A DNA stretch of 64,000 nt from Patescibacteria group bacterium (GCA_019428855.1 JAHYJV010000002.1:1917-65916); one strand, 5' to 3'. Positions 3,548 to 58,769 are shown, numbered from the stretch's first letter. Program-made: numbers and translations. The notes: generated from the letters alone by a model not told the origin.

Positions 3548-3582
3548 CCTTTTTACTCACGGCCGTGAGTAAAAAGGTTATA
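3543..3582. repeat. 40-nt perfect palindrome P2 (core ACTCACGGCCGTGAGT)
   Basis: tataacctttttactcacgg|ccgtgagtaaaaaggttata: exact 20-nt arms. The left arm contains the TAA stop (3545-3547) of the preceding gene. P1 and P2 share CC-TTTTT(T/A)CTCACGGCCGTGAG(A/T)AAAAA-GG. Confidence 0.95.
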
Positions 3583-3611
3583 GTAAAAATCAATTAAAAT
3601 AACGAATAATT

Positions 3612-6600: not shown

Positions 6601-7610
6601 AAGAACTAAAAAGACATTTTAAAAATTTCCAGATTATTTCTTTAAATGATATTGATAAATCTATTGAAGAACCAGAAGAAAATGAAAAAACATTTGCAGA
6701 TAATTCACTTCTCAAAGCAAGATATTATGCCCAGAAAACAGGCTATCTGACAGTTGCAGATGATAGTGGACTTTGCGTTAATGCACTTGATGGAAGACCA
6801 GGAGTCTTTTCAAGTCGCTATGCTGAGGGTAATGACAAGAAAGGTTGCGTAAAGCTTTTGAAAGAGTTGGAAGGTCTTTCCGACCGATCAGCACACTTTG
6901 AAGCTGTAGTGACGATATATGACTCCAAAAAGGATGAATATCATCAATTTGAGGGTCAGTGTGACGGTGAAATTTTAAGAAAATTCGAGGGAGATAGTGG
7001 GTTTGGATATGATCCAATTTTTATGCCAAATGGTTTTGCAAAATCCTTCGGGCAGTGTTCCATTGAGGAGAAATATTTATTTGATCACAGACAAAAAGCT
7101 ACAAAAAAACTAATCGCTTATCTTGAGAATAATTCGAATAATGATGAAAATAAAATCGAATCATTAATCCACAAAACCATCAAAAAAGTTTCAGAAGATA
7201 TTGATAACTTGAAGTTCAACACTGCCATTTCTCAACTAATGATTTTGGCTAATGAAATAGAAAAAGAAGATAAAATATCATCGGCCAACTTTAAAATATT
7301 TTTGAATTTGCTGTCCCCTTTTGTTCCGCACATCACGGAAGAAATCTGGAAAAATCTAGATGAGAGGCAAAGCATTCACTTGCAGACTTGGCCACAATTC
7401 AATCCACAATTTATCAAAGATACAGAAATAAATTTCGTCATTCAAATCAACGGAAAACTTCGCGATCAAATCATAGTCCCCACTGATATCTCAAAAGAAG
7501 AAGCAAAAAAACTCGCTCTGGAAAGCGAGAAAGTTCAAAAATGGGTTGCAGGAAAGGAAATTAGAAAAGTGTTTTTTGTGAAAGGGAGACTGGTTAATAT
7601 AGTTATCTAA
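3612..7610 (+). CDS. leuS: leucyl-tRNA synthetase with three nested extra domains (1332 aa)
   Basis: All LeuRS landmarks are present and in order: HIGH-type 'HVGH', Zn knuckle 'CPSCK...CERCG', CP1 editing motif 'TTRPDTLFG', 'AVPAHDERDFEFA', 'RDWIFSRQHYWGEPIP', 'KMSKSRGN', and anticodon-binding 'FNTAISQLM'. One uninterrupted frame. Confidence 0.95.
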   Translation: MEKYNHKKIEKKWQNVWDESEIYQAKDSSKKPKYYCLIEFPYPSGAGLHVGHLRSHIAIDIVARKKRMDGFNVMYPIGWDAFGLPTENFAIKTKTHPKVVTKNNIKNYNRQIKSYGPSFDWSREINTTDPEYYKWTQWIFLKLFNSFYDEKLDKARLIEELKVPKNFNEFEKKRYIDNHRLAYEKEMAINWCPSCKIGLANEEVVNGNCERCGALAERKVMRQWMLRITKYADRLIKDLKTVDYLEKIKSQQINWIGKSEGVTIKFKVKSGKIKDTNDCIATSKKTPHDNNEIIEVFTTRPDTLFGCTYIVLSPEHPLIEKYKNQIENFKEVEKYQDKASNKSDLERTDLAKEKTGVELKGIEAINPANNEEIPIWIADYVLASYGTGAIMAVPAHDERDFEFAEKFGIAIRDVVAPFFQADIGNENALRPDKKTVRRRLVTAFVKHWKEDKYLCLDWKKFKWHTPIIGGIEGGETPEEAGLREIREETGFQNMKFVHYLGGELHNSFFARHKDENRYSIEYGVLFELIDDKWEKPSEEEIKNHKAVWINAKEMETFLNLESKKILWHRLNGNFECFKGDGVNINSGFLDGMETIKAKKEISNWLVKNKLGQKAVNFKLRDWIFSRQHYWGEPIPIIKCRECGLKKLNIKMELNFRVNKAWNQIIDNKKTIETRALNPQEKDKFFGDIKVGDLVRFNNKNTQEFEIVRINKVYNFKNLSELFETQKIVKKIFTDVKIKNISELKKCFSFTEDYLDRIEKNGLVGWEFEKIDITENISLSEKELPLELPNVKNYEPTETGESPLANIKKWVEIKCPICGGNAKRETDTMPNWAGSSWYFLRYTDPDNSKEFASQKNLQQWMPVDLYNGGMEHTTLHLLYSRFWHKFLFDLEFVQTSEPYKMRRSHGMVLAEDGQKMSKSRGNVVNPDEVIGEYGADTVRLYEMFMGPYSDAIPWNTTSLIGMNRFLQRIWNLQSKISNTKLPKKETILIATNNPGKLKELKRHFKNFQIISLNDIDKSIEEPEENEKTFADNSLLKARYYAQKTGYLTVADDSGLCVNALDGRPGVFSSRYAEGNDKKGCVKLLKELEGLSDRSAHFEAVVTIYDSKKDEYHQFEGQCDGEILRKFEGDSGFGYDPIFMPNGFAKSFGQCSIEEKYLFDHRQKATKKLIAYLENNSNNDENKIESLIHKTIKKVSEDIDNLKFNTAISQLMILANEIEKEDKISSANFKIFLNLLSPFVPHITEEIWKNLDERQSIHLQTWPQFNPQFIKDTEINFVIQINGKLRDQIIVPTDISKEEAKKLALESEKVQKWVAGKEIRKVFFVKGRLVNIVI
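4854..5342 (+). other. Nudix hydrolase domain inserted in LeuRS (about aa 415-577)
   Basis: Perfect Nudix box GX5EX7REUXEEXGU: 'GGIEGGETPEEAGLREIREETGF' (aa 469-491, nt 5016-5084). It lies between 'ERDFEFAEKFGIAIRDV' and 'GVNINSGFLDG', which are contiguous in ordinary bacterial LeuRS. Confidence 0.8.
5541..5927 (+). other. ASCH/PUA-like domain inserted in LeuRS (about aa 644-772)
   Basis: 'WNQIIDNKKTIETRALNPQEKDKFFGDIKVGDLVRFNN...EFEIVRINKV' matches the ASCH pattern (G-K-K-T-hEhR ... hKhGD). It lies between 'GEPIPIIKCRECG' and 'ELPLELPNV'. Assigned by motif recall; weaker than the other two. Confidence 0.5.
6561..7127 (+). other. RdgB/Ham1 (ITPase) domain inserted in LeuRS (about aa 984-1172)
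   Basis: 'ILIATNNPGKLKEL', 'EENEKTFADNSLLKARYYA', 'VADDSGLCVNALDGRPGVFSSRYA', 'GFGYDPIF' and 'FDHRQKA' align along the whole length with E. coli RdgB motifs (ATGNxGKxxE, ExGxTFxENAxxKA, ADDSGLxVxxLxGxPGxYSARY, GFGYDPxF, SHRxxA). Confidence 0.85.
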
Positions 7611-14123: not shown

Positions 14124-14993
14124 CTACCTAGGAATTGAATATGACTCCCCTGTACCATATTCCTTCATAAAATTAAATCCGTTAAAAATATTGGTTTGTG
14201 CTTCATAATCAATATGATCAATTTCATTTTTAAATTCATTAAGCCAGAATATTCTGAATTCCCAACCATCTCCAGAAGCCATTGTTGCTTGTTCCGTAAT
14301 ACCAGCACCTATAACATCATCATTCTCATCAAAAACAACAACTGCTATATCTACATTATAAAAACTATATCTTGAATTATTTTTTGTTTCTCCATAGACA
14401 TAATATTGTTCTGGTCCTTCTTCAACAAATTCACCGTAAGTATTTTTAATTTGAATAATCTCAACATTATAATCTAGAAGTTCTCGGGAGTCCTTGATTT
14501 CATTCCAAACATAATCAAATAGTTGAATTTTAATATCGCTGATTTCCCCTTCATATTTAAAATTATCATATATCACATATTTCCCAGTCTCGTCTTTAAT
14601 AAAACCACTTGGCATAATATATGTTTCTCTGTCTTCAGAATTCGTCAAATTACCATTTTCATCAAATATTTGAAATCTGTATCCTAAAGAAGATAAACCC
14701 CAAGATACATTACTGTTTGAAATTCTAGCAACTAGATCATAGCTTCCTTCACCGTCTTGGACATAATCAATAAATTTCAGACTAATATCACTGGCATCAG
14801 GAGGCATTAGTGGAGGTGGACATTTCTTCGCGCAAATTCCACCACAATCAATTTTTTCTTCGCCTAAATCAAGCAAAGAATTGAAACAAATTTCAATAAC
14901 TGGAGGAAATAATATCTTATATAGCATAATTAAGCTGGTGATGAAAATCGCCAATATCATTGACTGTTTTATTAATCTTTGACCTTTTGACAT
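14124..14993 (-). CDS. hypothetical membrane-anchored protein
   Basis: 289 aa. N-terminal TM helix, Cys-rich 'CFNSLLDLGEEKIDCGGICAKKCPPP', then a beta-rich region. No recognisable catalytic motif. Confidence 0.7.
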   Translation of the reverse strand: MSKGQRLIKQSMILAIFITSLIMLYKILFPPVIEICFNSLLDLGEEKIDCGGICAKKCPPPLMPPDASDISLKFIDYVQDGEGSYDLVARISNSNVSWGLSSLGYRFQIFDENGNLTNSEDRETYIMPSGFIKDETGKYVIYDNFKYEGEISDIKIQLFDYVWNEIKDSRELLDYNVEIIQIKNTYGEFVEEGPEQYYVYGETKNNSRYSFYNVDIAVVVFDENDDVIGAGITEQATMASGDGWEFRIFWLNEFKNEIDHIDYEAQTNIFNGFNFMKEYGTGESYSIPR

Positions 14994-15020
14994 TTTTTAT
15001 TTTTTATATATTATAAATCT

Positions 15021-15049
15021 ATTATACTATTTTAAAAAAATATGGTCAA
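15021..15049 (-). promoter_or_regulatory. sigma70-type promoter for the 14993 operon (TTGACC-17-TATAAT)
   Basis: Reverse complement of ggtcaa (15044-15049) and attata (15021-15026), with an exact 17-nt spacer. It lies 28 nt upstream of the ATG at 14993. Confidence 0.65.
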
Positions 15050-15057
15050 TAAATCGA

Positions 15058-15108
15058 GGCTCTGCACTAATAACTGTGGTGGATAACTTAAGAAGTGGTA
15101 GAATAATA
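15058..15108 (-). repeat. promoter-proximal conserved module, copy A
   Basis: ggctctgcactaataactgtggtggataacttaagaagtggtagaataata. Starts exactly 8 nt from the -35 hexamer. Homology to copy C continues to about 15232. Confidence 0.9.
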
Positions 15109-15340
15109 TTTATAAATTAACAATTCACACTACTTCTCTGAAAAATGAGGTCAAAAAACTGTTTAATGATGTTCTTCCGAGTGAAGAAAGGAGCCGAGGA
15201 ATTCCTTTCAATCGGATATAAGTATCAAATCATTTAACTATGAAACCAAAATCCTCTTTTTGAGGCATGTGGTGAAATGACGCCATAGAAGGAATTAGTT
15301 TGTTGGTTAGATTAATATTTTCTTGACCTTTTTTATTTTT

Positions 15341-15660
15341 TTAAATTCTATAAAGATTATCTAATTTTTTATCACTTATTCTTTTTAGCTCCGCTAGGTT
15401 GAGTGATTGATGATTATTCTTAGTTTTTCTTTTTTTGATATTATATCTAAATCCATCAAGCGGCGGTAAAAAGTTTTTTCGATCGTATTTTCTCTTGATG
15501 CGTCCCCCGATTCTTTCTTTGGAAATTAATTTAATCACGGGTTGAAAAAAGTTCTTGTACAACCTTAATTCATTTTTGTTAAGATGTTTAAACAATCTAA
15601 TTCTTCTTGTGTGTTATATCGCAGATACCCAATCACTTGCCTAATATGCGTATAGTAATT
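15341..15660 (-). pseudogene. C-terminal remnant of an integrase-core (rve-type) IS transposase
   Basis: Track ORF 15341..15595 ('LYKNFFQPVIKLISKERIGGRIKRKYD') resembles the conserved C-terminal tail of rve-family transposases. Upstream sequence shows related fragments only in other frames with stops. No catalytic domain is present. Family assigned from memory. Confidence 0.4.
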
Positions 15661-15763
15661 TTTAACATTTCAGTTGATAAGAACGATTAAATTTCTGGAA
15701 GTGTCAAATGTAGAAAGTGCGGAATTTGACTGAAATATTACTTTATTCCCGCTTTCAAGTAGA

Positions 15764-15792
15764 ATTTCATTTCATTTCATTTCATTTCATTC
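15764..15792. repeat. (ATTTC)5 microsatellite
   Basis: Five perfect tandem ATTTC units at 15764-15788 plus a partial unit. Confidence 0.95.
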
Positions 15793-15994
15793 TATACTTC
15801 AAAACTATAAACCCTTGTCGTTGATTTCATATATTTTATTACACTTCTATGATTAACCATCTCACATTTTGATTCCTTTCAGGTATAATTCACCGCCCCC
15901 TGGGGCGTAATCTCTTTTTGTGATTTTCGACTTAAGTTATTATTTCGAAGATACCCCGTCTGCTTGCGGCGCAGTATAATTCATTTAAAACGCT

Positions 15995-16041: not shown

Positions 16042-16161
16042 TCTCCGGCGATGACCTACTCTCCCAACCCCGTACGGGGCAAGTACCATCAGCGCTAATG
16101 AGCTTAACTTCTGAGTTCGGAATGGTATCAGGTGTAACATCACCGCTAAAATCACCAGAGA
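16042..16161 (-). rRNA. rrf: 5S rRNA
   Basis: Reverse complement contains 'CCTGATACCATTCCGAACTCAGAAGTTAAGC' and 'GGGAGAGTAGGTCATCGCCGGAGA'. The terminal helix pairs UCUCUGGUGAU with AUCGCCGGAGA. Confidence 0.9.
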
Positions 16162-16317
16162 ATTTGTATACTAAATTATAATAGTGTATATAAAATTTTC
16201 AATATGTCAAATATAAAATTTTTTACATTCAATTGAATTATATAAATAGTTTTACAAACATTAAATGCCAGTTAATCCTTTTATTGCATTTTAATTTAAA
16301 AATGCAATTACATTAAA

Positions 16318-19375
<3,058 letters not shown>

Positions 19376-19683
19376 TAATGTAAGATTAACTAGCAATTAA
19401 AATTTGCAATTTAATATTTTATAATATTTTTTACCTATTTATATATATTCAATTGTCAATGATCATTCAAATCTTATATCTTCCGTTCATCTTCTAAATA
19501 TTAGAAAATGAATTAAAACTATAATTTTAAAAAATAAAACCGCCTTGTTCAGAGGCGATTTTAATCTTGTGATAATCACAAAATTAACCGCCATTTAATC
19601 ACTTAAATTCAATTCCATTTTTTTCATAACTTTATATTATGAATTAATGATTTTGCAAAATTAAAACTAAACATTACTTACAT

Positions 19684-19711
19684 AGAATAGCACAACTAAT
19701 AATACTGTCAA
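19684..19711 (-). promoter_or_regulatory. candidate promoter of the 23S-5S unit (TTGACA-16-TATTCT)
   Basis: Reverse complement of tgtcaa (19706-19711) and agaata (19684-19689). Same architecture and the same GTGCTATT -10 context as the 16S P2 promoter. Confidence 0.5.
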
Positions 19712-19782
19712 GTCTTAATTAATAATGCTTAAAACATAGAAAAAAAATTATTTTTTCAAGGAAGATTATACCTATTTATTGC

Positions 19783-19821
19783 TAAAATAAAAGAAGATAG
19801 ATAAGATTGATCTATCTTCTT
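19783..19821 (-). terminator. intrinsic terminator after the 227-aa membrane-protein gene
   Basis: Perfect 12-bp stem aagaagatagat (19791-19802) / atctatcttctt (19810-19821), followed on the minus strand by TTATTTTA. Confidence 0.7.
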
Positions 19822-19857
19822 TTTAGTGCTGTTAGACAAGTATTGAACAACAAGTTT

Positions 19858-20541
19858 CTATTTTAACTTATCTTTCAATTCATCCAGTAGTTCTTTCGCA
19901 TGGTATTGTCCACCCAATCCAAATGCAAGTCCTCCTGCAATGGCAAGCATTAAAGATAAACCACCTGCAAAAATCTTAATAATTTCCATACCAATTTGAA
20001 TTTGCTCCAGTACAACTAAGAATGTAAATATAATAATCGTCCACTTAAATAAAAATGCAACCAAATGATACATTCGAATTCCACTAGCTTTTGCCAGACC
20101 GTCTGTTGATTCGTACACAAGTTGAGAAATAATAACACCAATTGTCAAGCTAATAATCGCTAGAAATAAACTAGGTAGATAACTTAATATTTGTGCTAGA
20201 AATTCCGATACTTGTGGGATATCCATTATATCTACTACAAACTTTAAAGTAAATATCAGAATAAACCATTTAACCAACCAGCCTACGAGTTTCGAAATCG
20301 AAAAATTTATATTAATTCTTTTAAAACATTTTTTTATCCCAGCTTTTTCCAGCGATTTATCAATACTCATTTTTTCAAAAAGAATTTTTGTTAATTTTTC
20401 AAGTTCAACTGCAAACATCAAACCAATGAAGAAAACAAAGACTGCCGAAAAGATAGAACCCTCTATAAGAAATGCTTGATAAAAATTATAGATCGAACTT
20501 GGAATCTCGTAATAAACATCTGTAAATAAATTATATTGCAT
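19858..20541 (-). CDS. multi-pass membrane protein with repeated TM-helix motifs (MscS-associated 'conserved TM helix'-like)
   Basis: 227 aa, at least 4 TM segments with a repeated pattern, and a C-terminal 'GLGGQYHAKELLDELK'. The functional call is tentative. Confidence 0.6.
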   Translation of the reverse strand: MQYNLFTDVYYEIPSSIYNFYQAFLIEGSIFSAVFVFFIGLMFAVELEKLTKILFEKMSIDKSLEKAGIKKCFKRININFSISKLVGWLVKWFILIFTLKFVVDIMDIPQVSEFLAQILSYLPSLFLAIISLTIGVIISQLVYESTDGLAKASGIRMYHLVAFLFKWTIIIFTFLVVLEQIQIGMEIIKIFAGGLSLMLAIAGGLAFGLGGQYHAKELLDELKDKLK

Positions 20542-20785
20542 TTATAACACCCCCTTTCTTTTTATTTTTTTAATTAAATGTTATTAATTTTTTAAGAAAT
20601 TTATGAAAAAATATTATCTAAAATTGTTTTTATGTCTATGATAATATTATAACACATATTAATTATACTGCAATTTTATTTCGCAAGTTCTATATTGATT
20701 TTAAAATTATATTTTTTAGAAATAAAATCTTAGAAAGTTATCTCTGAGATTTTATTTGTGAACATTAAATTTTGGTGGTGTTTGT

Positions 20786-21191
20786 TTGAAAAAGTCAGAA
20801 CTCATTTTGAACAAAATACAGATTATGCTTGTTCAGAATAGAAAACCCCGCAAAAAGCGAGGGGCAAAAAATTTTCAATATTTAGGTTTTGCTACTTGTG
20901 GGATTTGTGGCTATGCCATAACCGCCGAAAGACATATTAAAAAAAGTGGTTTGAAATTTGTTTATTATTATTGCAACCACAAAAGCAAAACTGTTGCTCG
21001 CACTGAAAATTGTTTTTTTGCGGGAAGAAGCTTTAACCGAACAAGTAAAAAACCTTTGTCAAAAAGTTTCTTTGCCTGATGAGTGGTGGAAAAGAAAACA
21101 ATTGAGGAAAAATTATCGGATTTTGAACGAAAAGGTAATCATTGGCTCGAACTCATGCGAAACTGAATTATTGAAGCCAACCAAGCCGTAA
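20786..21191 (+). pseudogene. frameshifted fragment of a large serine recombinase (zinc-ribbon region only)
   Basis: Frame A: 'FATCGICGYAITAERHIKKSGLKFVYYYCNHKSK', the recombinase Zn-ribbon pattern CGxCG...YYxC. It continues only in another frame as 'FLREEALTEQVKNLCQKVSLPDEW'. The N-terminal resolvase catalytic domain is absent. Confidence 0.6.
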
Positions 21192-21199
21192 ATCTCTAT

Positions 21200-21239
21200 A
21201 AACAAGAAAATCCCTCAAGGATGAGAGATTTTCTTGTTT
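21200..21239 (-). terminator. hairpin downstream of tRNA-Ala (candidate terminator)
   Basis: aaacaagaaaatc (21200-21212) pairs with gattttcttgttt (21227-21239). The T-rich segment is inside the stem, so strength is uncertain. Confidence 0.35.
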
Positions 21240-21367
21240 CCATCGGCTCGAACCGTAGAATTTTGGCGGGAATTATTTCGGCGGAATTCAAAACCCCCTG
21301 GAATTTCTTGGAGAAAACCAATGCCGAGGGGCGAAGCCCCGAGGCAACTTCTTTAACAAATTCGGAC

Positions 21368-21444
21368 TGGTGGACCCAACAGGATTCGAACCTGCGACCC
21401 CCTGCTTGCAAAGCAGGTGCTCTAGCCAACTGAGCTATGGGCCC
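21368..21444 (-). tRNA. tRNA-Ala (UGC), CCA encoded
   Basis: Reverse complement GGGCCCATAGCTCAGTTGGCTAGAGCACCTGCTTTGCAAGCAGGGGGTCGCAGGTTCGAATCCTGTTGGGTCCACCA. Cloverleaf fits, with anticodon loop TTTGCAA. Confidence 0.95.
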
Positions 21445-21555
21445 ATAATTTTTTTCGTTTTATATAATAATATTTGAACATCTTATACTGCTTGATTATT
21501 ATATCAAAATCAACTGTATTCGACTATATCTTAAATATATAAAAGCTAAAACGAG

Positions 21556-21629
21556 TGGGCGTACCTGGACTCGAACCAGGGACCTTTACATTATCAGTGT
21601 AACGCTCTAACCAGCTGAGCTATACGCCC
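21556..21629 (-). tRNA. tRNA-Ile (GAU)
   Basis: Reverse complement GGGCGTATAGCTCAGCTGGTTAGAGCGTTACACTGATAATGTAAAGGTCCCTGGTTCGAGTCCAGGTACGCCCA. Anticodon loop CTGATAA. No encoded CCA. Confidence 0.95.
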
Positions 21630-21954
21630 GGATGCTAATTTCTAATTTTAAATCAATTTCTAATAACTGAATTTTTTATATTAAAAATTAAGACATTAGT
21701 TAAAAATAATGAAATTCACTTCTCTATTATAACAAAAATCGCATCTTATGCAATACTATTGTATAGATGCGATTTTTGTTTTCACTTTTATTACAAACTT
21801 TGTGCAATTGTCCTGAAGGCAATTTTGTTCCTATCTACTCGAAAATAGATAAGCCTGTATTACCAACAGCCAAACATGTAGATGATATTAAAATCATTCT
21901 ACAGACGATCTCGGTGAGTGTATTTCTTTAGACTAAAGAAATAACTTTCTCCCT

Positions 21955-23421
<1,467 letters not shown>

Positions 23422-23636
23422 AATGATAATCTATTCATTGAAGAATAATTTATCTCAAAATATAATAAAGCATAATCAATGGACATAAAAATGTCAATGT
23501 AATTATGCATAAAAGTTTTATCTTGGAATTGTCTATAACCGGATAAGTTTATAGACTCGCAGGACAACTGCACAAAGTTTATATAATTGTGTGTGATTTA
23601 TATTTAATTGTTAATGAACAATTTAATTACTAAGTC

Positions 23637-23740: not shown

Positions 23741-23769
23741 ATACTATAGCAATAAATGATTTGTGTCAA
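23741..23769 (-). promoter_or_regulatory. candidate 16S promoter P1 (TTGACA-17-TAGTAT) with upstream conserved module
   Basis: Reverse complement of tgtcaa (23764-23769) and atacta (23741-23746), with an exact 17-nt spacer. Confidence 0.5.
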
Positions 23770-23777
23770 ATTAGGTG

Positions 23778-23829
23778 GGCTCTACACTAATAACTGCGGT
23801 GAAGAACTAAAAAAAATTATTGGATTATA
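23778..23829 (-). repeat. promoter-proximal conserved module, copy B (most diverged)
   Basis: ggctctacactaataactgcggtgaagaactaaaaaaaattattggattata. The first 24 nt are nearly identical to the other copies. Starts 8 nt from the -35 hexamer. Confidence 0.8.
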
Positions 23830-24008
23830 CTGATAAATAATTTAATTAGATATTATGAATTCTAACATTTGCTTATTTAAACAATTCTTCCGCTCCATTT
23901 CAAAGCGGGCGGAATAATAATTCAAAAATTGTAATTTATAGATTTCATTCAAAACAACAGCTAAAAGATTCTGAAACAAATTTGTAGTGACATCTTTAAT
24001 TTTCAATT

Positions 24009-35687: not shown

Positions 35688-36241
35688 CACAAACTATTGC
35701 AAAAACTGGCTTGGTCCAGTTTTCTTTGTTTTTAAGATTAATAAATATTATTTATGGATATTGAAATGTTTATGTCTTATATTAATCATAAAAGGATCCA
35801 TTCAGAAGACACATAGCTAATGGAAAAATTACGGTTTGAGAGCGTAAAGCGAAACGAAGTGAAGTTTTACGAAAAAGAAGTGTGTTTTGAAATTGCAGTA
35901 AAATCCCGCTCTCGCTGAACTTGACACTCTATGAAATTTAATCGCTCTTGATTGAGTTTTGATGCTTGATTAGTTTTAGCGGGTTTGACAGAGACCCTTT
36001 AAATCCTACCTCCACCTGGAATAATATCTTAAAAAAGTTTTTTATATTTTTTTACAGATGTTGTATGAATTACTTGTTTTTCAATATAATTCTATTTATT
36101 TAGTTTTTTACCACACCAATCAATATAAAACTAGAATACATTTACCAAGAAATCGTTTTTATCTCATTTAAAGATAATAAAACTACAATTCCTTTAAAAT
36201 GTAGTTGTGTTGCATATAAACAAAGTATATTAGATTTATTT

Positions 36242-39790: not shown

Positions 39791-40141
39791 TTATTTTGTT
39801 TCCCCTGTGTTAGACTCTTTTACTTCATCGGTCTTTTTCTCAGACGAAGCTTCAGTTTTAACATCGCCTTCTTTTTTCTTTGAACTCCACGCTTTTATTT
39901 TATCTCCCTTGATTATGCCAGCATCCACCAAAAGATTATTCACCGTCGTGGAAGGTTGAGCTCCTTTGGAAATCCAATATTCAACCCTATCTTTTTTAAA
40001 TACTTTTTCCTTCGTGTGAGGATTATAATGACCCAAAATTTCAATAAACTTTCCAGTTGGAGATCTTCTAACATCAGCTAATGTTATTCTGAATTGAGCT
40101 GTGTTTTTCTTTCCTACTCTACTTAATCTAATTCTTAACAT
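39791..40141 (-). CDS. rpsP: 30S ribosomal protein S16 with Lys/Glu-rich C-terminal tail
   Basis: 'MLRIRLSRVGKKNTAQFRI...GHYNP'. Start placed at ATG 40141, the canonical S16 N-terminus. Confidence 0.93.
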   Translation of the reverse strand: MLRIRLSRVGKKNTAQFRITLADVRRSPTGKFIEILGHYNPHTKEKVFKKDRVEYWISKGAQPSTTVNNLLVDAGIIKGDKIKAWSSKKKEGDVKTEASSEKKTDEVKESNTGETK

Positions 40142-40178
40142 ATTGATCAATTTGATTAATTATTAAATCTACTTATTC

Positions 40179-40207
40179 ATATTAATCCATATAACAATAA
40201 ATGTCAA
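40179..40207 (-). promoter_or_regulatory. rpsP operon promoter (TTGACA-17-TAATAT)
   Basis: Reverse complement of tgtcaa (40202-40207) and atatta (40179-40184), with an exact 17-nt spacer. It lies 38 nt upstream of the rpsP ATG. Confidence 0.65.
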
Positions 40208-40215
40208 TAAATTGT

Positions 40216-40266
40216 GGCTCTACACTAATAACTGTGGTGGATAACCAAAGAAGTGATAGAATTATA
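40216..40266 (-). repeat. promoter-proximal conserved module, copy C
   Basis: ggctctacactaataactgtggtggataaccaaagaagtgatagaattata. 100% identical to copy D. Starts 8 nt from the -35 hexamer. The extended element, shared with copy A, runs to about 40395. Confidence 0.95.
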
Positions 40267-40338
40267 TGGAAGAATTAACAATTCACACCACTCCTATTAA
40301 AATGATATTAAAAAAAAACTGTTTTAAGCTATCATCCA

Positions 40339-40395
40339 AGCGACGAGAGGAGTCGAGAGATCCCTCTTAGTCGCGCTAAATATTATCAAATATTA
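40339..40395 (-). repeat. GC-rich hairpin module (second module of the intergenic element), copy C
   Basis: agcgacgagaggagtcgagag is identical to 44001-44021. Imperfect hairpin GCGAC..AGAGG/CCTCT..GTCGC. A degenerate relative lies at 15178-15210. Confidence 0.8.
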
Positions 40396-40469
40396 ATTCC
40401 AAATAAGAGTGATTTAACGAGGATGCCCCTCATCTTGGGAGACATCTGCTTGATTTCTTGCTTTTGCGT

Positions 40470-40500
40470 AACAAAGATGCCCTGCAAGATGCAGGGCATC
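40470..40500 (-). terminator. candidate smc terminator
   Basis: Perfect 10-bp stem gatgccctgc (40476-40485) / gcagggcatc (40491-40500), followed on the minus strand by TTTGTT. It lies about 145 nt downstream of the smc stop. Confidence 0.55.
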
Positions 40501-40643
40501 TTCAAATACAAAATGTAAGACACTCTCAAACATTTAGGCCAGTCGAGAACGATTCATCCACTTCACTATTATGCGGTCAGAATAAAAGATATACATTACT
40601 ACACTCAACCACCACACATTTTGACAAAGGGCCAAAATTCGTA

Positions 40644-42902
40644 TTACTTATTAATTTCATCTAGTTGCAAGGAAATAATTTTTGATACACCATCATTTTG
40701 CATTGTGACCCCATAGAGAACTCCTGCCTGCTTCATCATTTCACGATTATGGGTAATGATAATAAATTGAGTTTTTTGAGAAATTTCACCAATAATTTTA
40801 GACAGTTTAGATGAGTTTGCCTCGTCTAGAGCTGCATCAATTTCATCTAAGACTGAAAAAGGAGGTGGATTGTTAGATATTATGGCAAATAGTATAGCAA
40901 TAGATGTCAAAGCTCTCTCACCACCAGAAAGCATATTTAAGCTGCTAATCTTTTTTCCAGGTGGCTCGGCATTAATTTCAATTCCTGCAATCTTTTTCGC
41001 GAATTCTTTTGTGATACTATCTTCACTAGCTTCCTGATTTTCCTGCCTATCTTCATCTGCCTTGTCAGTATATTTGATAGACAATCCTGCCTTACCACCA
41101 GCAAAAATCATTTTGAAATATTTATTTAATTCCGTATTAATTCTTCTAAAAGATTCTTTAAAAATCTTTTCAATCTTCTTGTCAAGCTCAGTAATAACAT
41201 CTCTTAGCGAGCTTGATGCCTTGATCAAATCCTCATACTGCACATTTAAAAAATCGAATCTTTTTTGAGTTTCATCAAACTCTTCCACAATTAAAGGATC
41301 TATTCCTCCGATTTGCTCAAGCTGAAATTTTAATTTTCGGACTCTTGATCTCGACTCCTCCTGATTAAAATAATTATTTTCAGTTATAGTTTCAGTTTTA
41401 GCTTCCTGTAAACTATCCAAGAACTCACTTGAATTAAACTCTTCCCTTATCTCACTTATCAAATCCTCTTTTCGAACTTCAAACTTAGCAAGTTCAATAT
41501 TAATAGTATTCAAATTGTCTTTTAATCGGTTCAATTCTTCCTGTTTTGCTTGAAGCTTTCTTTCAAATTCAAAAAACAATCTTCTTCGATCTTGTTCTTC
41601 TTGATTTAGAAGAACAATTTTTCCATTAATTTCTTGGTATTTTTTCGATTTTTGTGAAAGTTGAATATTCAATTTCTCTTTTTCAGAAATATATTTCTTT
41701 AACTCTTCATCATTAAATACTTGTTTTTTTTCATTCAAATTAATTTTTCCTTCACTAACTTCTGAAAACAAATGCTCAACATCAATTTTAATTAATTTCC
41801 CACTTTCTTTTAGGCGCTCAATATTGTTCAAATCATTTAAACTATTGATATTAGCCAATAATTTTTTATATCTATTCAAAATGTTAGTCAGCTTTCCTTT
41901 GACATAACCAAGGTTAATTGGAACAAATTCGGGGTTTTCTGTCGTGTCTTTTTTTTCATTTTCAATCTGAATTCGACCTTCAAGAACAGAAAGATTTTTT
42001 TGTAATTCATTAATAACAACTTGAATATCGGAAGTTTCCTTTTGATACCCGCTTAAAGTAGGTTGATATTCTTCATTTTTATTATCATTTTTTGAAAGGT
42101 TGTCTTTGATAATTAAAATATCATTTGCAGCATTATCCACTAATTTATCAATATTTATTTTATCAACGGTATTTTTAATATTTTTTTTTAATAAATTCCG
42201 CCACATATTAGAGTACAATAGTTCTTGCTCTGTCTTCAAGCTAGCTTCAATCAACCCTCTTTTTTGAGCTCTGCTTGCTAAACGCTTCAGAGAACTCAAA
42301 CGAGGTTCGATTTCATTTAAGAGGTCTGTTATTCTTTGGAGATTTCTTTTTGTAGCCTCAAGTTTTTTTATTGTTTGTTGTTTTTTAATCTGAAACATTC
42401 GAACTCCAGTCGCTTCTTCAAAAATTACCATTCTCTCAGCTGGAGTGGCTGACAAGATTGAATCGGCCATACCTTGAGTTATAACACAATAACCCCTCTG
42501 ACTCACTCCTGCACTTGTTAATAAATCAACTACATCAGATAATCTCACTTTCGATTTATTAATCAAATATTCACTCTCTCCACTTCTAAAAAACTTCCTC
42601 GTCACGATAACCTCTTCGTAATCTATGGGGATTTTTTTATCTTTATTATCAAGATAAAGAGAAACAACTGCAGCACTCATCTTTGCTTTCTTGTCTGTTC
42701 CCGTGAAAATTATATCTTCACTTTTCTTTCCTCGCAAACTTTTCATGCTTTGCTCACCAAGAACCCATCTGACAGCATCAGCTACATTTGATTTTCCAGA
42801 ACCATTTGGTCCGACAATTGCCGTCACACCTTGAGGAAAATCCAAAATAGTCTTATTCGCAAATGACTTGAACCCAGTTGTCTCAATTTTTCTTAGATAC
42901 AT
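40644..42902 (-). CDS. smc: SMC-family chromosome segregation ATPase, unusually short (752 aa)
   Basis: N-terminal head 'FKSFANKT...GPNGSGKSNVADAVRWVLGEQS'. C-terminal head 'LSGGERALTSIA', 'LDEIDAALD' and 'IIITHN'. Long heptad-like middle region; no hinge-type glycine-rich motif seen by eye. Confidence 0.85.
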   Translation of the reverse strand: MYLRKIETTGFKSFANKTILDFPQGVTAIVGPNGSGKSNVADAVRWVLGEQSMKSLRGKKSEDIIFTGTDKKAKMSAAVVSLYLDNKDKKIPIDYEEVIVTRKFFRSGESEYLINKSKVRLSDVVDLLTSAGVSQRGYCVITQGMADSILSATPAERMVIFEEATGVRMFQIKKQQTIKKLEATKRNLQRITDLLNEIEPRLSSLKRLASRAQKRGLIEASLKTEQELLYSNMWRNLLKKNIKNTVDKINIDKLVDNAANDILIIKDNLSKNDNKNEEYQPTLSGYQKETSDIQVVINELQKNLSVLEGRIQIENEKKDTTENPEFVPINLGYVKGKLTNILNRYKKLLANINSLNDLNNIERLKESGKLIKIDVEHLFSEVSEGKINLNEKKQVFNDEELKKYISEKEKLNIQLSQKSKKYQEINGKIVLLNQEEQDRRRLFFEFERKLQAKQEELNRLKDNLNTINIELAKFEVRKEDLISEIREEFNSSEFLDSLQEAKTETITENNYFNQEESRSRVRKLKFQLEQIGGIDPLIVEEFDETQKRFDFLNVQYEDLIKASSSLRDVITELDKKIEKIFKESFRRINTELNKYFKMIFAGGKAGLSIKYTDKADEDRQENQEASEDSITKEFAKKIAGIEINAEPPGKKISSLNMLSGGERALTSIAILFAIISNNPPPFSVLDEIDAALDEANSSKLSKIIGEISQKTQFIIITHNREMMKQAGVLYGVTMQNDGVSKIISLQLDEINK

Positions 42903-43117
42903 TTATTTAGATTATCAGTTACACAAAATATCACTTTGAATTGTAATATTTTACAAGCAATTCTCAATGAACTACATATGCGTAGAAGATCCTTATTGAC
43001 ACATAAAAACTTAGCCATTTCAAATTAATTCTCACAGCCAAAGACGCAACGCTTTTGTGTCTCACACGGCAAGAAAAAAGACTTCACAATAATTCAAAAT
43101 ATTTCTTTCCTTTGAAA

Positions 43118-43726
43118 TTACTCCGTAATTCCATCTAAATTGACATCATACAAAATTTCTTCAGCGATTAAGCGATAATCAAAAATTTCTTCTGCCGAAA
43201 ACCAATGAGCAATTTCCGCTTTCGCATCATCAAGAGAACCAGAAGAGTGAATCAAATTTCGAATTGGTCGTTGATCAACATCTGCTATTTGATATGAATC
43301 TAATGTATAATCTCCTCGAATTGTACCTACATCCGATGAAAGTGGCTCTGTTCCACCCGTAATTTTTCGCACCAAACCAACAGCTTGATTTCCCTCCCAA
43401 ACCATGGCGATTACAGGACCAGAAGTCATATATTTTTTCAAGCCATCCAATACTTTTTGTCCCACTGCTTTTTTGTCTCTTGAAGGCGGTTCAACTCCTC
43501 TTCTTTCATAAGAAGAAATTGACTTTTTTCCCACCTTCTCAACCCACTCTGGATCAATCAAATAGTGCTGTTCAACTTTTTCCTCAGTTGCTTGAATCAT
43601 TTTCAAGGCTTTCAACTTCAAACCCGTTCTTTCATATTTCTTGATTATCTCGCCAATCAATGTCCTTTGAATTCCGTCTGGTTTTATGATTACCAATGTT
43701 TTCTCTTTCTTTGGGTGATTTTCCAT
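43118..43726 (-). CDS. ndk: nucleoside diphosphate kinase (long form, 202 aa)
   Basis: 'KTLVIIKPDG', 'TSGPVIAMVWEG', 'GTIRGDY' and 'NLIHSSGS' (active-site His). Compared with ~140-aa enzymes it has an internal insertion of about 30 aa and a C-terminal extension. Confidence 0.85.
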   Translation of the reverse strand: MENHPKKEKTLVIIKPDGIQRTLIGEIIKKYERTGLKLKALKMIQATEEKVEQHYLIDPEWVEKVGKKSISSYERRGVEPPSRDKKAVGQKVLDGLKKYMTSGPVIAMVWEGNQAVGLVRKITGGTEPLSSDVGTIRGDYTLDSYQIADVDQRPIRNLIHSSGSLDDAKAEIAHWFSAEEIFDYRLIAEEILYDVNLDGITE

Positions 43727-43874
43727 TTTTTTTTACTTATTATTTAATTATTATACTACTTACCTATAAGCTATATTATATCATCTAAATTGTTTTTCTC
43801 ATAATCAAAAACTCCATTCGCCTCTTTATTCAATTTATTACTCTAATTATTACTTTCGATTATTTCATAATCTC

Positions 43875-43903
43875 TTTATATCACAATTTTTCTTATTTTA
43901 CAA
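43875..43903 (-). promoter_or_regulatory. ndk promoter (TTGTAA-17-TATAAA)
   Basis: Reverse complement of ttacaa (43898-43903) and tttata (43875-43880), with an exact 17-nt spacer. Confidence 0.5.
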
Positions 43904-43911
43904 TAAATTGT

Positions 43912-43962
43912 GGCTCTACACTAATAACTGTGGTGGATAACCAAAGAAGTGATAGAATTATA
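43912..43962 (-). repeat. promoter-proximal conserved module, copy D
   Basis: Identical to copy C over 62 nt (43900-43962 region, caataaattgtggctc...gaattata). Starts 8 nt from the -35 hexamer. Confidence 0.95.
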
Positions 43963-44000
43963 CTTAAAATAATATCAAAATGTTTATATTTGTCATTTCG

Positions 44001-44057
44001 AGCGACGAGAGGAGTCGAGAGCCACCCTCTTAATCACTCTAAATCTTATCCAATATC
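44001..44057 (-). repeat. GC-rich hairpin module, copy D
   Basis: agcgacgagaggagtcgagag..cctctta..ctaaat.ttatc.aatat, collinear with 40339-40395. Confidence 0.8.
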
Positions 44058-44117
44058 ATTTCCCATAAAGCGATTTGTCGACGACTCTACTACCCTGATT
44101 GGAATAAAAGCTTAAAA

Positions 44118-44984
44118 TCACTCAAACACTAAATCACCAGCCTCATCCGTGCGAAAAAATTCAATATTCAAATTCTTAAGACGATTCAATAATTCTTCTG
44201 TGGGATGACCATAGCTATTTTTCCCCACGGGTATAATAGCTGTCTGAGGATTAACCTTTCTTAAAAATTCATTTGAAGTGGCATTTTTGCTGCCGTGATG
44301 GGCAATTTTGAGAATAGTTGCTTCGATATTAATATTTTTTTCTAATAATTTCTCCTCAAGCACAAACCCCGCATCGCCCGTTAATAAATATGAATTATCT
44401 TCCATATCAATCCGAAGAATAATTGAAGCATCATTATCATCTTTCATTTTCACATCTTTAAGATTATCGAATGGATAAAGGATTTTAATGTCTATACCAT
44501 TTACATTAATTCTCTGTCCGAACTCGGCGTATTTGATGGGAATATTTTTTTCCTCCACGAGCTTATCCCACTGCTGACAAATCGCCGTTTCGCACGCAAT
44601 TCCTGTTTCTAAAATCTGCCGAACTTCATAATATTTCAAAACCTCAACTAAACCACCCATATGATCCTTGTCTGGATGCGTCAAAATTAACAATTCTATC
44701 TTCCGATCCAGCAGGGGCATATACTGGCCAAGCTTTTCTAAAATTTTTTCCCCGTCTCCCCCGTCAATTAAAATCTGCACACTACCTCCTGCATCAACAA
44801 TTGTGGCATCGCCTTGCCCTACATCTAAAAATATAATTTTTACATCATCAATTTTACTCTGATTATCATCTAAAAACAACAAAAAAACATTCGATGTAAT
44901 CAACATTAAAAAGATTATAAATATATATTTTTTTGAAATGATTGACATTTTTATCAGAATAAGTATGTTGAACTTTTTAATCAC
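44118..44984 (-). CDS. MBL-fold metallo-hydrolase (stand-alone ComEC C-terminal-type domain)
   Basis: 288 aa. Signal/TM helix, then 'LDVGQGDA', 'THPDKDHMGG', 'LLTGD' and 'AHHGS', the motif set of the ComEC beta-lactamase-like domain. Confidence 0.85.
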   Translation of the reverse strand: MIKKFNILILIKMSIISKKYIFIIFLMLITSNVFLLFLDDNQSKIDDVKIIFLDVGQGDATIVDAGGSVQILIDGGDGEKILEKLGQYMPLLDRKIELLILTHPDKDHMGGLVEVLKYYEVRQILETGIACETAICQQWDKLVEEKNIPIKYAEFGQRINVNGIDIKILYPFDNLKDVKMKDDNDASIILRIDMEDNSYLLTGDAGFVLEEKLLEKNINIEATILKIAHHGSKNATSNEFLRKVNPQTAIIPVGKNSYGHPTEELLNRLKNLNIEFFRTDEAGDLVFE

Positions 44985-45040
44985 AAGAACAGTTGTAATA
45001 AAAAATAATTACACCCATAAACTAATGAAGAAATACTTTC

Positions 45041-46648
45041 TTACTTTTTTATATTTAGCAATAATATCAGAATTCCATAATAAACTATCCCGAACCAAAT
45101 ACTAATTTTTTCAAAACTAAAAAAGCCAAACTCAACTCCTGCAAAAAAATTAATGATAGCAAGCTGGAGAGATAGAATTAGCCAAACGGGAACTACCAAA
45201 ATTTGTCCAATTACAAGATTTACAAATCCCGCCATAATAGAAATTATACCTCCAATCATCACCACTGGCACAAAAGGTAAAACCAAAATATTGGCAAAAA
45301 CAGAAAGAACAAAAAACTGTCCAAAGCTTTTCATTATAATGGGCAAAGTGGCAATTTGTGCTGAAATAGTAATTAAAAACATACTTTTTATTTTCAAAAA
45401 ATCAGGATATTTTTTGAAAAGCGAATCTAGTTTTGGGAATATATATATTATACCAAGCACTGCTAAAAAAGAAAGTTGGAAACCTGTATCATACCGCAAT
45501 AAATTTGGATTAAATAGAAGCATTAAAGAACCTGCAAAAATTACCGCAATTCCAGCACTTGAGATCCGACCGACCTTAACTGCCAATAAAATCATCACAC
45601 TCATTACAGATGCCCGCACAGCTGAGGGAGGAAAACCAACTAATGTCACATAGAAAAAAATACCCAGAACTGCAAGATAAAAGGCAAAATTTCGATTCAA
45701 CCCAAAGGCAAGCAAGAGAAACATAATCAACACCCCTATAATCGTCATATGTAGCCCCGAGATAGCGATTATATGCCTCGTGCCAGTTCGATTAAAGCCC
45801 TCTAGAGTTTCGTCGCTTAAATCAGATTTTTCACCCAAGACCATTGCGTTAATAATTCCCGCTTGAGGTTGTGAATATATTTTTCGGGCAACCTCACTCG
45901 CCCTTTTCCTATAAATAGCAATTTGTAATTGTATATCTTTGTCCGCATTTTCTATAAGCTCGACTTTTGGATAATATACAACAAAATATATTCCCTGAGC
46001 AAATAAATAATCTTGATATTCAAAACCATCAAAATCTTCGGGAACATTTAATTTTCCTTTAAGGCTAATTTCATCTCCCCTGTTATATTCCGGATATCTC
46101 TCAAGATAAACTATTACATTTCCCAACCTAGACAAACTATTTTCAATCTGCTCGTTTTTAATATTGCTTAACACAATCTTCTGTTTACCATTCCTGATGG
46201 ATGGTGCTTCCGATATTTTTCCCTGCAATAAAATTTCCTCTCCGTTGAGATTTTCGATAAATGAAATATCATTATTCGTCAGCTTATTTATTTCAATTCT
46301 GATCAAACCTAAGGAAAAGAAAATAATAAATACAAACAAGGCAAGAGGAAATAGATTACGAAATGAAGCTAAATTAATGATTTTGGTCCCCTGACCCATC
46401 TCATCAGAAAAAATATTTTTTATATCTTTCAGGTTATTTTTATCGCAGGCGGTATTTTTTAAGCCCCTCTCATAATTCGTATTGGAGGATATTTTCTTGT
46501 TTTTAAGCAAAAAAATAAGTGCAATACAAAATCCCACTATCAAAAACAAAATCCAAACCTCAACCGCATAAAAAGACCCGACCGCAATTCCCATAATAAA
46601 AGAAAGGCAACTTAACAAAAAATATTTTGATTTAGTCATAAATCTCAA
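45041..46648 (-). CDS. comEC: ComEC/Rec2 DNA-uptake channel protein (OB-fold plus competence domain, no MBL domain)
   Basis: 535 aa polytopic membrane protein. 'FNRTGTRHIIAISGLHM', 'GFPPSAVRA' and 'GFQLSFLAV' are ComEC competence-domain signatures. Possible start at 46639. Confidence 0.85.
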   Translation of the reverse strand: MRFMTKSKYFLLSCLSFIMGIAVGSFYAVEVWILFLIVGFCIALIFLLKNKKISSNTNYERGLKNTACDKNNLKDIKNIFSDEMGQGTKIINLASFRNLFPLALFVFIIFFSLGLIRIEINKLTNNDISFIENLNGEEILLQGKISEAPSIRNGKQKIVLSNIKNEQIENSLSRLGNVIVYLERYPEYNRGDEISLKGKLNVPEDFDGFEYQDYLFAQGIYFVVYYPKVELIENADKDIQLQIAIYRKRASEVARKIYSQPQAGIINAMVLGEKSDLSDETLEGFNRTGTRHIIAISGLHMTIIGVLIMFLLLAFGLNRNFAFYLAVLGIFFYVTLVGFPPSAVRASVMSVMILLAVKVGRISSAGIAVIFAGSLMLLFNPNLLRYDTGFQLSFLAVLGIIYIFPKLDSLFKKYPDFLKIKSMFLITISAQIATLPIIMKSFGQFFVLSVFANILVLPFVPVVMIGGIISIMAGFVNLVIGQILVVPVWLILSLQLAIINFFAGVEFGFFSFEKISIWFGIVYYGILILLLNIKK

Positions 46649-58067: not shown

Positions 58068-58118
58068 GGCTCTACACTAATTAGTGTGGTGGATAACTAA
58101 TAAAGTGGTAAAATTATA
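58068..58118 (-). repeat. promoter-proximal conserved module, copy E
   Basis: ggctctacactaattagtgtggtggataactaataaagtggtaaaattata. Contains the perfect 14-bp palindrome ACACTAATTAGTGT. Starts 8 nt from the -35 hexamer. Confidence 0.9.
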
Positions 58119-58160
58119 TTGATAAATTATTTTTGAATTACGAAATTCAAAATACTTATC

Positions 58161-58259
58161 ACCCTGAGCCTCCCAACTTGTTACCCTGAGCTTATCGAAG
58201 GGTTGAAGTCTCACCATAATATAATCAATCATATGACAATGGTTCGATAAGCTCACCAT
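58161..58259. repeat. REP-like GC-rich repeat cluster
   Basis: 12-bp perfect inverted repeat gagcttatcgaa (58188-58199) / ttcgataagctc (58243-58254). Direct 8-mers accctgag (58161, 58183) and ctcaccat (58210, 58252). Confidence 0.8.
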
Positions 58260-58769
58260 GACAAATTTATTAAAGTGAAATTCACAACAACCCCTGCCCC
58301 TTCTTACTTAAAAATGGAATTATTTGGAACTGACACTAATTTGTTATAAAAAAAGAAACACAATGCTTACTCCATACTCCTGTGTAAAGTATTTTGTAAT
58401 TTTTAACAAACTTTATCGTTTCACACAAGGCTCTACAGGGCTACCGCTACAATGGAGCCAGCTTCGAATACAAAATGCCAGGCATCAAATCATTTTGGCA
58501 AAGATCCTAAAATAGGAATTATCGCTATAAGCAACAATTTAATATAATCCGAATATATAGTCAAAATAACTGTACAAAAATTACTTTTTTTATATATTTG
58601 AATTAAGAAATTGCTAATATTACATATTTAACTTTTCCCTTCGGTGTTTCAACATCAACATTTTCATTTCACGTTTCCTTCTTCAATAAATCAATTTTGT
58701 TTCCGTATATAATTGTTTATATATCATTTAGTGTTCTTGCTACGCCAAGTCAAAGTTGTCAACTCCGAT

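Follow-up and report, generated by a model that had tools for sequence, protein, structure and literature searches.

Repeated intergenic blocks in a Patescibacteria genome as probable remnants of an ISL3-family insertion sequence lying beside host promoters

Several intergenic gaps in a stretch of 64,000 nt from a Patescibacteria group bacterium (GCA_019428855.1 JAHYJV010000002.1:1917-65916; hereafter, the window) share a repeated block of DNA, in which a sequence-only reading had seen either a terminator/insulator-plus-promoter cassette separating operons or something resembling a miniature inverted-repeat transposable element (MITE). Our analysis indicates, with a probability of about 0.9, that the blocks derive from an ISL3-family insertion sequence (IS) found in Patescibacteria (candidate phyla radiation, CPR), of which they are non-autonomous remnants, some MITE-like and others one-ended. 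The core that they conserve comprises the left terminal inverted repeat (IRL) of such an element, GGCTCT...TGTGGTGG, and the leader of the transposase mRNA. The repeat is real and its explanation ordinary; the noteworthy part is a rule by which the element inserts at the upstream edge of promoters.

The family consists of five copies in the same orientation, A to E, and a decayed inverted copy, F (Table 1). A 22-nt piece of the core has five plus-strand matches with at most three mismatches (at 15066, 23786, 40224, 43920 and 58076) versus none in 100 shuffled sequences, so the repeat is far beyond chance. Copies C and D lie among the genes smc and rpsP and a gene of the MBL fold and ndk, respectively, B is upstream of the 16S rRNA and E upstream of the signal peptidase gene lepB. 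Self-BLAST and exact extension confirmed that the smc/rpsP and MBL/ndk gaps share 62 nt of 100% identity (40205-40266 and 43901-43962), but both starts had been placed one base off, and, while the core belongs to the element, 11 of the 62 bases (40205-40215) are host DNA. The identical 21-nt GC core was found where it had been reported (40339-40359 and 44001-44021), and so were the core, the middle segment and the degenerate GC module of copy A, which are all taken in by an alignment of 14997-15214 with 40156-40373 (74% over 221 nt). Copy F aligns at 35937-36145 with 40417-40203 (66% over 217 nt). The order described for the minus strand, from GC hairpin through T-run and core to promoter, holds in A, C and D and weakly in F, but B and E are without that GC module. 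Likewise, the gaps that had been named do contain copies, but B, E and F have to be added to them, and C extends to 40633, its right tip being 10 nt from the stop codon of smc (40644-40646).

Full-length relatives from metagenomes begin with the same core. They are 1277-1341 bp long, contain a single open reading frame (ORF) of 395-409 aa whose start lies 80-101 nt from the GGCTCT tip, and end in ...CAC..TTTGACA.AGAGCC, the inverted image of GGCTCT...TGTGGTGG. Their ORF matches Pfam DDE_Tnp_ISL3 (E=1.5e-54 and 1.9e-56) as well as Zn_ribbon_ISL3, and 120 transposase homologues carry precomputed Pfam domains consistent with the ISL3 type. Transposase domains, terminal inverted repeats, an 8-bp duplication, size and the single ORF thus all place the full-length relatives in ISL3, whose members are about 1.2-1.5 kb long and have inverted repeats of about 15-39 bp. 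Since the same core heads a DDE_Tnp_ISL3 ORF and the mirrored end closes the unit, the core is the IRL and leader of an ISL3 element. The left end of copy C is also found on the full-length ISL3 elements L017, L028, L029, L031, L034, L036, L046, L049 and L071, and the IRL GGCTCTAyACTAAT.AGTGTGGTGG pairs with the right inverted repeat (IRR; reverse complement GGCTCTTTGTCAAA..GTGTGGTG) in at least 15 elements, copy C among them.

When the copies were judged as MITEs (short, without transposase, with both parental inverted repeats), C qualified, B and D failed because they are one-ended, and A and E were doubtful. Copy D has no recognisable right end, and the right arm of its leader is missing too. 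Copy A is probably a two-ended decayed copy with a moderately supported right end: its tail finishes in what reads as the inner half of the IRR (CCATCTCACATTTTGA, 15857-15872), for which the window has 2 matches versus 0.42 expected by chance. The extra DNA between its GC module and tail (about 460 nt, 15215-15678) contains an 84-aa ORF on the minus strand (15341-15595) with no Pfam match. In copy E, TTGGCAAAGATCC at 58495-58507 is a possible decayed right end, weak and degraded at best. Other MITEs with both ends are L001 and L006 (231 bp), L047 (267 bp) and L007 (455 bp). The family is dispersed, as six copies in 64 kb and nine copies at non-orthologous sites in the metagenome-assembled genome (MAG) C14-28 attest.

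Table 1. Coordinates of the repeat copies, their parts and the adjacent predicted promoters in the window.
Feature	Position	Strand	Remarks
Copy C, complete 418-bp MITE, transposase-less ISL3 derivative	40216..40633	+	Both inverted repeats; fills the smc-rpsP gap
Copy C, IRL GGCTCTACACTAATAACTGTGGTGGATAA	40216-40244	+	Inverted image of IRR; heart of the 62-nt core
Copy C, IRR CCACCACACATTTTGACAAAGGGCC	40609-40633		
Copy C, leader hairpin	40247..40297	+	Left arm 40247-40263 within the 62-nt core; right arm 40280-40297, ttaacaattcacaccact
Copy C, putative decayed start codon and about 12 first transposase codons	40296..40337	+	Alignment to L017, L028, L034
Copy C, GC-rich hairpin module	40338..40376	+	
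Copy C, hairpins H2 (40421-40446) and H3 (40474-40503)	40421..40510		Second small repeat nested within copy C
Copy D, left-end fragment	43912..44075	+	IRL 43912-43940, leader left arm, GC hairpin ~44000-44040, ctaaatcttatccaatatcatttcccataaagcgatt
Copy A	15058..15873	+	IRL 15058-15086, leader and dead start, degenerate GC hairpin 15178-15215, ~460 nt extra DNA, tail
Copy B, old IRL-only remnant	23778..23830	+	8 bp upstream of the rRNA operon promoter -35
Copy E	58068..58507	+	IRL 58068-58096; interior replaced by other repeats
Copy F, decayed, inverted	35937..36145	-	Without adjacent promoter-gene pair
rpsP promoter (predicted)	-35 TTGACA 40207->40202; 17-nt spacer; -10 TAATAT 40184->40179	-	Consensus scan and coordinates; rpsP ATG 40141
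ndk promoter (predicted)	-35 TTGTAA 43903->43898; 17 nt; -10 TATAAA 43880->43875	-	Coordinates
Copy A promoter (predicted)	TTGACC 15049->15044; 17 nt; TATAAT 15026->15021	-	Drives ORF 14124-14993
rRNA operon promoter (predicted)	-35 TTGACA 23769->23764	-	8 bp from copy B
lepB promoter (predicted), by copy E	TTGACT 58059->58054; 17 nt; TATTCT	-	

The nine copies in the Patescibacteria MAG C14-28, which came from a scan of one genome per species, have housekeeping genes to their left, as do the window copies, among them rplU, rpoB, glyS, sodA and RNase J; the same scan found the core once in a Doudnabacteria MAG. Orthologous proteins of the window genome and C14-28 are 48-81% identical and their coding DNA 66-77%, and the element is 80-81% identical to the C14-28 MITEs over ~300-330 nt (core 92-96%) in non-orthologous gaps. 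A first metagenome scan with the pattern GCTCTNCACTAATNANTGNGGTG gave 0 matches, because most relatives have GGCTCTATACT or GGCTGTAC. A second scan, with a pattern on the other half of the core, recovered 55 loci, about 38 of them true copies. Many of these copies lie 100-118 nt from a contig end, as is typical of repeats at which assemblies break, and many contigs of ~1.28 kb are the IS alone. In the viral collection there was one match only, a chance one inside coding DNA. Loci L074, L075, L076 and L081 carry an identical IS with left and right flanks from different insertion sites, likely through chimeric assembly joins or recombination through the repeat.

The closest relative found was a Pacebacteria MAG (L012), whose NDK is 92% identical. 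When orthologous gaps were compared with this sister genome, L012 was found to keep the rRNA promoter without the core block upstream, and in its ndk-operon gap a decayed core remnant is left next to a degraded GC module. Since the core is missing at one site and decayed at the other, the element varies in presence and absence among close relatives. The -10 region of ndk, ctctttatatcaca, is kept in L012. Synteny between L012 and the window is lost exactly at copy B, only a few bases on the upstream side of the rRNA -35 (L012 14212-14260 vs 23764-23777), and ISL3 ends may mark, or even mediate, rearrangement breakpoints.

The interior of the repeat can be read as parts of the parent element. 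Pairing in the leader was scored on an alignment of 13 distinct leaders, and two stems hold: one inside the inverted repeat, and a long one that pairs the inner core (..AAGTGGTAGAATT) with AATTCACACCAC..CTATG and runs into the transposase start codon. In this alignment 85.3% of the cells are paired, a figure that sliding the partners lowers to 35-49%; four pairs have both bases exchanged (for example, GAAUU/AAUUC to GGAUU/AAUCC), and one pair, which is U.G in 13/13 sequences, forms only on the plus, transposase-sense, strand. In intact elements the leader hairpin would bury the start codon, a common means by which insertion sequences limit the translation of their transposase. The middle segment of the sequence-only reading then appears to be the right arm of the leader stem, followed by a dead start codon and the first codons: ATG has become ATT in copy C (40296-40298), after which comes ...GATAT.AAA.AACTG..., and elsewhere it is ATC or CTG. 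The A-run or T-run, in turn, would be the dead start codon with some 12 decayed transposase codons, as judged by alignment.

These leader data also bear on a multi-copy small RNA gene, which would be transcribed on the plus strand from an extended -10 box, TGnTAGAAT, inside the core and have the hairpins as its body. A box of this type is kept in A, C, D and E, the plus-strand interior folds well, and several stems have G.U pairs valid only on that strand. However, the TAGAAT box is the left arm of the leader stem and co-varies with AATTCACACCAC, so that a transcript starting after it would miss this arm; moreover, the plus strand is the sense strand of the transposase, and the supposed body is modular and often missing. 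The box, being a stem arm of the transposase leader, was rejected as a divergent small RNA promoter, and we consider such a gene scarcely credible. With Rfam 15, only rRNA and tRNA reached the gathering threshold in the window, and a sensitive scan of 39950-40700 gave sub-threshold noise only, none of it on the core.

The GC hairpin occurs only beside the IRL, always in the same order. L002 and L007 contain it as well, and a related module, 'gatgtcatcctgagcga', takes the same place in the MITEs L035, L044 and L047; on this distribution we treat it as a module that probably belongs to the MITE interior. Both strands of the interior of copy C give stable folds (z = -6.35 and -5.74); DNA palindromes would behave in this way, and neither strand is thereby singled out. 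The small repeat formed by H2 and H3 lies inside the MITE in copy C, L002 and L007 and outside the IRR in L001 (40421-40510; L001 ~1700-1740; L002 ~7340-7420; L007 ~3780-3860). It has a conserved AUCUU loop and a 13-bp GC stem, its stems vary between copies, and the three MITE-internal copies are flanked by duplicated 'ataagagYgatt'-like sequences, all of which suggests an independent nested element. A second repeat family, common to window 58132-58269 and MAG C14-28 (L001 3446-3482 and 7591-7714; L002 7472-7573), contains the palindrome TTGAATTACGAAATTCAA and a 12-nt inverted repeat, GAGCTTATCGAA/TTCGATAAGCTC, and lies inside or beside ISL3-derived copies.

In each of the copies A to E, 8 nt separate GGCTCT from a -35 hexamer on its left that is read on the opposite strand and followed by TAnnnT after another 17 nt, the promoter pointing leftward into a minus-strand gene; in copy C the 8 nt between the rpsP -35 and the tip are 40208-40215 (TAAATTGT). 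The same arrangement emerged from 44 unique left flanks, found by DNA motif in many samples. Counting outward from the tip, the first 8 nt are variable and AT-rich, positions 9-13 read T40 T38 G38 A30 C29 and positions 32-37 T30 A38.. A27 T34 (of 44). TAnnnT occurs at a spacer of 16-18 nt in 35 of the 44 flanks versus 5-14 at shifted positions, and 32 of the 37 loci whose flank is long enough continue with an outward ORF. Named downstream genes are rRNA, rpsP, ndk, lepB, rplU, rpoB, glyS, sodA and RNase J.

Target duplications establish where the element ends. In the MITE L047, a perfect 8-bp duplication, ACAAATCA, abuts GGCTCT and AGAGCC. An independent set of full-length elements, fetched by protein homology (transposases 56-61% identical) and not by DNA motif, provided eight unique sites, with perfect 8-bp duplications in L072, L073/L079, L080, L082, L083 and L084-87; the six distinct ones are ATTTTTTT, AAAACCAG, AATAAAAT, CTTAAGCA, AATTGAGA and ATTTTTAT. 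Just past the duplicated 8 bp on the IRL side, TTGACA, TTGATT or TTGTAT was found in seven of the eight sites, and at the eighth, L083, TTGACA stands at the same offset on the IRR side. In every locus of this set both neighbouring genes are opposite in strand to the transposase. Because perfect duplications abut GGCTCT and AGAGCC, both the 8 nt and the hexamer must come from the target, and the promoter is host DNA outside the element.

This result is difficult to reconcile with a terminator/insulator-plus-promoter cassette, that is, a host unit under selection which would end the upstream operon at the GC hairpin and restart transcription at the promoter. It is true that the genes around the copies are co-directional, that a convincing-looking promoter lies to one side of them and hairpins to the other, and that stable folds are obtained for either strand of the copy C interior (z about -6). 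But the promoter is outside the repeated unit and, except for the hexamers, differs in sequence between copies, the duplications put the boundary of the unit at GGCTCT, and the same core heads a transposase gene elsewhere. Furthermore, a consensus scan of 40100-40700 found 0 intrinsic-terminator-like sites on either strand, by which the GC module and H3 were rejected as terminators; the U-run is ~20 nt from the GC hairpin and coincides with the decayed coding start; and the sister genome has the rRNA promoter without the core. We therefore regard the cassette as very improbable and have abandoned that part of the sequence-only reading. Its other proposal, modular decay of a MITE-like element whose copies recombination spread or made uniform, agrees with the ISL3 ends, with both repeats in copy C and with an identity tract of C and D that runs into host DNA.

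Together, the two sets give 52 unique sites (44 by DNA motif and 8 by protein) on which the promoter-edge rule rests. The pattern is already there in recent insertions (identical copies whose duplications are perfect), which argues for target choice rather than later evolution of the flanks, and selection alone may favour survival in intergenic DNA but cannot yield a single fixed offset. Target choice at the promoter edge is probably genuine. Full-text searches brought up no account of a fixed offset from the -35, nor is one given in PMC7643977, PMC13216065 or PMC9208149, and we hold it an even bet that the rule is undescribed.

We propose that a full-length element would supply the DDE transposase in trans, which would bind GGCTCT...TGTGGTGG at both ends, the IRL being its presumed binding and cleavage site, and insert the element by an 8-bp staggered cut. 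The cut would fall directly upstream of the sigma70 -35 hexamer, with the left end nearly always facing the promoter, so that the element and the downstream gene would diverge, the right end of the element abutting the 3' end of the upstream gene. Copies might later decay by deletion, nested insertion and recombination into the mosaic seen here. We would only tentatively suggest, rating it somewhat below even, that the CPR ISL3 clade uses the -35 hexamer TTGACA, or RNA polymerase bound there, as its integration landmark. As to how the -35 might be recognised, our best guess, with a chance of about one half, is that the transposase reads TTGAC directly; tethering to promoter-bound RNA polymerase seems unlikely. 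An outward TTGACA is also part of the IRR, 7 nt from its tip; mimicry of this end as the cause of the targeting was rejected, reasoning from geometry, since the relative orientation is opposite.

The perfect identity of C and D begins 11 nt outside the tip of the element, with the 8-mer TAAATTGT and CAA of the -35 (40205-40215), and ends in the left arm of the leader. Since the identity enters the host flank, the interior of D is only ~74% identical to C and the ortholog in the sister genome is decayed, the tract is most simply seen as a recent gene conversion from another copy. A coincidence after fresh insertion at the same hot spot keeps some residual probability, in that the 8-mer has a preferred AT-rich pattern; that of copy A is TAAATCGA.

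A host use of the solo left ends has to be weighed at the same place. They could have been exapted as an upstream promoter element, the host keeping them at -44 to about -100 as a factor site or UP-like sequence. The core contains a near-palindrome, ACACTAAT.AGTGT, and a DnaA-box-like TTATCCAC; the left end outlives the rest of the element in B, D and L009; it stands at a constant distance from the -35 in promoters of rRNA and ribosomal proteins; and in D it is perfect versus an interior ~74% identical to C. Yet target choice already explains the fixed distance, which recent copies with perfect duplications show as well, in the closest relative the core is absent from the rRNA promoter and decayed at ndk, and the perfect tract at D runs into host DNA, as gene conversion would give. 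We know of no protein that binds the core; with the IS identified, a DnaA box or a transcription-factor operator is no longer required to explain it, and we consider exaptation improbable.

Several points weigh against an ISL3 origin of the blocks and their insertion at promoters. No transposase gene or convincing remnant was found within the window when it was searched by tblastn with the transposases of the relatives (noise at E ~1), nor is an autonomous partner seen there. Among the window copies, C alone has a clear right end, and its flanking 8-mers, TAAATTGT and AAAATTCG, agree at 5 of 8 positions. Several metagenome copies have unmatched flanks, which we interpret as recombination or chimeric assembly; about 10-20% of the flanks are without a good -35 or -10; and the host may have some use for the solo left ends kept at B, D and L009. 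The C-termini of several ISL3 transposases gave a weak tblastn match (E ~1) at 3308-3394 on the minus strand, probably by chance.

The 8-bp direct repeats are classical for ISL3 (PMC7643977). In Enterococcus faecium, ISL3 elements have an outward TTGACA at the 3' end and insert in intergenic DNA near opposite-strand genes (PMC13216065), and ISL3 is over-represented between co-directional genes and in proximal promoters (PMC9208149). The elements described here share with those of E. faecium (PMC13216065) and with CLJ-ISL3 (PMC7643977) the DDE_Tnp_ISL3 domain with an N-terminal zinc ribbon, a length of ~1.3 kb, inverted repeats and 8-bp duplications, and also the outward perfect TTGACA near the 3' end and the preference for intergenic sites between co-directional genes near a gene start. 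In contrast, the CPR clade lives in Patescibacteria, has transposases at most 31% identical to those of characterised plasmid-borne ISL3, and inserts at a fixed 8-bp offset from the host -35 with a strong orientation bias. In the comparison with these plasmid elements the ends differ too, and the Enterococcus matches all represent one conserved merA-linked insertion.

As IS-derived MITEs, the window copies resemble Correia/NEMIS of Neisseria, RUP of pneumococcus and MITEAba12 (PMC6382973) in being short, non-coding, multi-copy and intergenic, with the repeats of a parent IS, probable mobilisation in trans, internal hairpins and mosaic decay. They differ in that most are one-ended fossils, that the parent is ISL3 and that insertion is tied to promoters. 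With the BOX elements of pneumococcus and with the repetitive extragenic palindromes of E. coli and their mosaics (REP/BIME; PMC2817692, PMC3333891) they share modular short hairpin units in intergenic DNA, some of them nested. However, BOX and REP are without DDE-type inverted repeats or 8-bp duplications and REPs are linked to Y1 transposases (RAYT), whereas the window modules are parts of one IS-derived unit in fixed order. A REP/BIME system with RAYT was rejected, given that the modules occur only with an ISL3 left end, in fixed order, with DDE-type repeats and 8-bp duplications; the weak Y1_Tnp gene of L012 shows no link to the repeats. This IS200/IS605-like gene lies at L012 4813-5379, between comEC and the MBL gene, and is absent at window 44984-45041.

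Matus-Garcia et al. (2012) reportedly described promoter propagation by 'mobile promoters', near-identical upstream sequences before unrelated genes. The window repeat differs from these in being a transposon end that lands by pre-existing promoters and not the promoter itself. Site-selective elements, such as the REP-targeting IS1397/ISKpn1 (PMC1525189) and the RNA-guided IS110/IS1111 (PMC11187229), also have their position fixed to a short recurrent landmark, a 'safe haven'. Here, in contrast, the landmark would be a -35 hexamer and the enzyme an ordinary DDE transposase, with no guide RNA evident. In yeast, Ty3 and Tf1 target promoters, and, if the proposed landmark is true, the CPR elements would be a functionally similar case of promoter-directed 'safe-haven' targeting by a bacterial DDE insertion sequence.

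For annotation, the blocks are to be taken as ISL3-derived MITEs or solo ends and not as regulatory cassettes or RNA genes. ISL3 repeats also explain assembly breaks in intergenic gaps and some wrong joins of flanks. Landing at the upstream edge of a promoter, divergent to the gene, would let mobile DNA persist in small, gene-dense CPR genomes without the destruction of genes, and repeated hits at the same site together with recombination would account for copies that are mosaic and in part homogenised, and may be a cause of rearrangement at the boundaries of operons. If the landmark is true, each insertion marks a genuine promoter in an uncultured organism; the more than 50 insertions form a natural promoter catalogue, according to which these hosts use the canonical TTGACA-17-TATAAT promoter. 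Were targeting encoded in the transposase, it could become a tool for promoter-proximal integration.

Two further regions of the window were recorded. At 2918-2969 and 3543-3582, perfect palindromes of 52 and 40 nt flank a plus-strand ORF (3017-3547, 176 aa) with a PaaX_M / Cas2-like domain, and 2924-2996 resembles 3543-3613 (82%). The rRNA operon (16043-23423, minus strand) comprises, in this order, 16S, tRNA-Ile, tRNA-Ala, a 227-aa ORF (19858-20541) with a mechanosensitive-channel transmembrane helix, 23S and 5S; compared with the Rfam model, its 23S is expanded at two places, by 59 and 52 nt.

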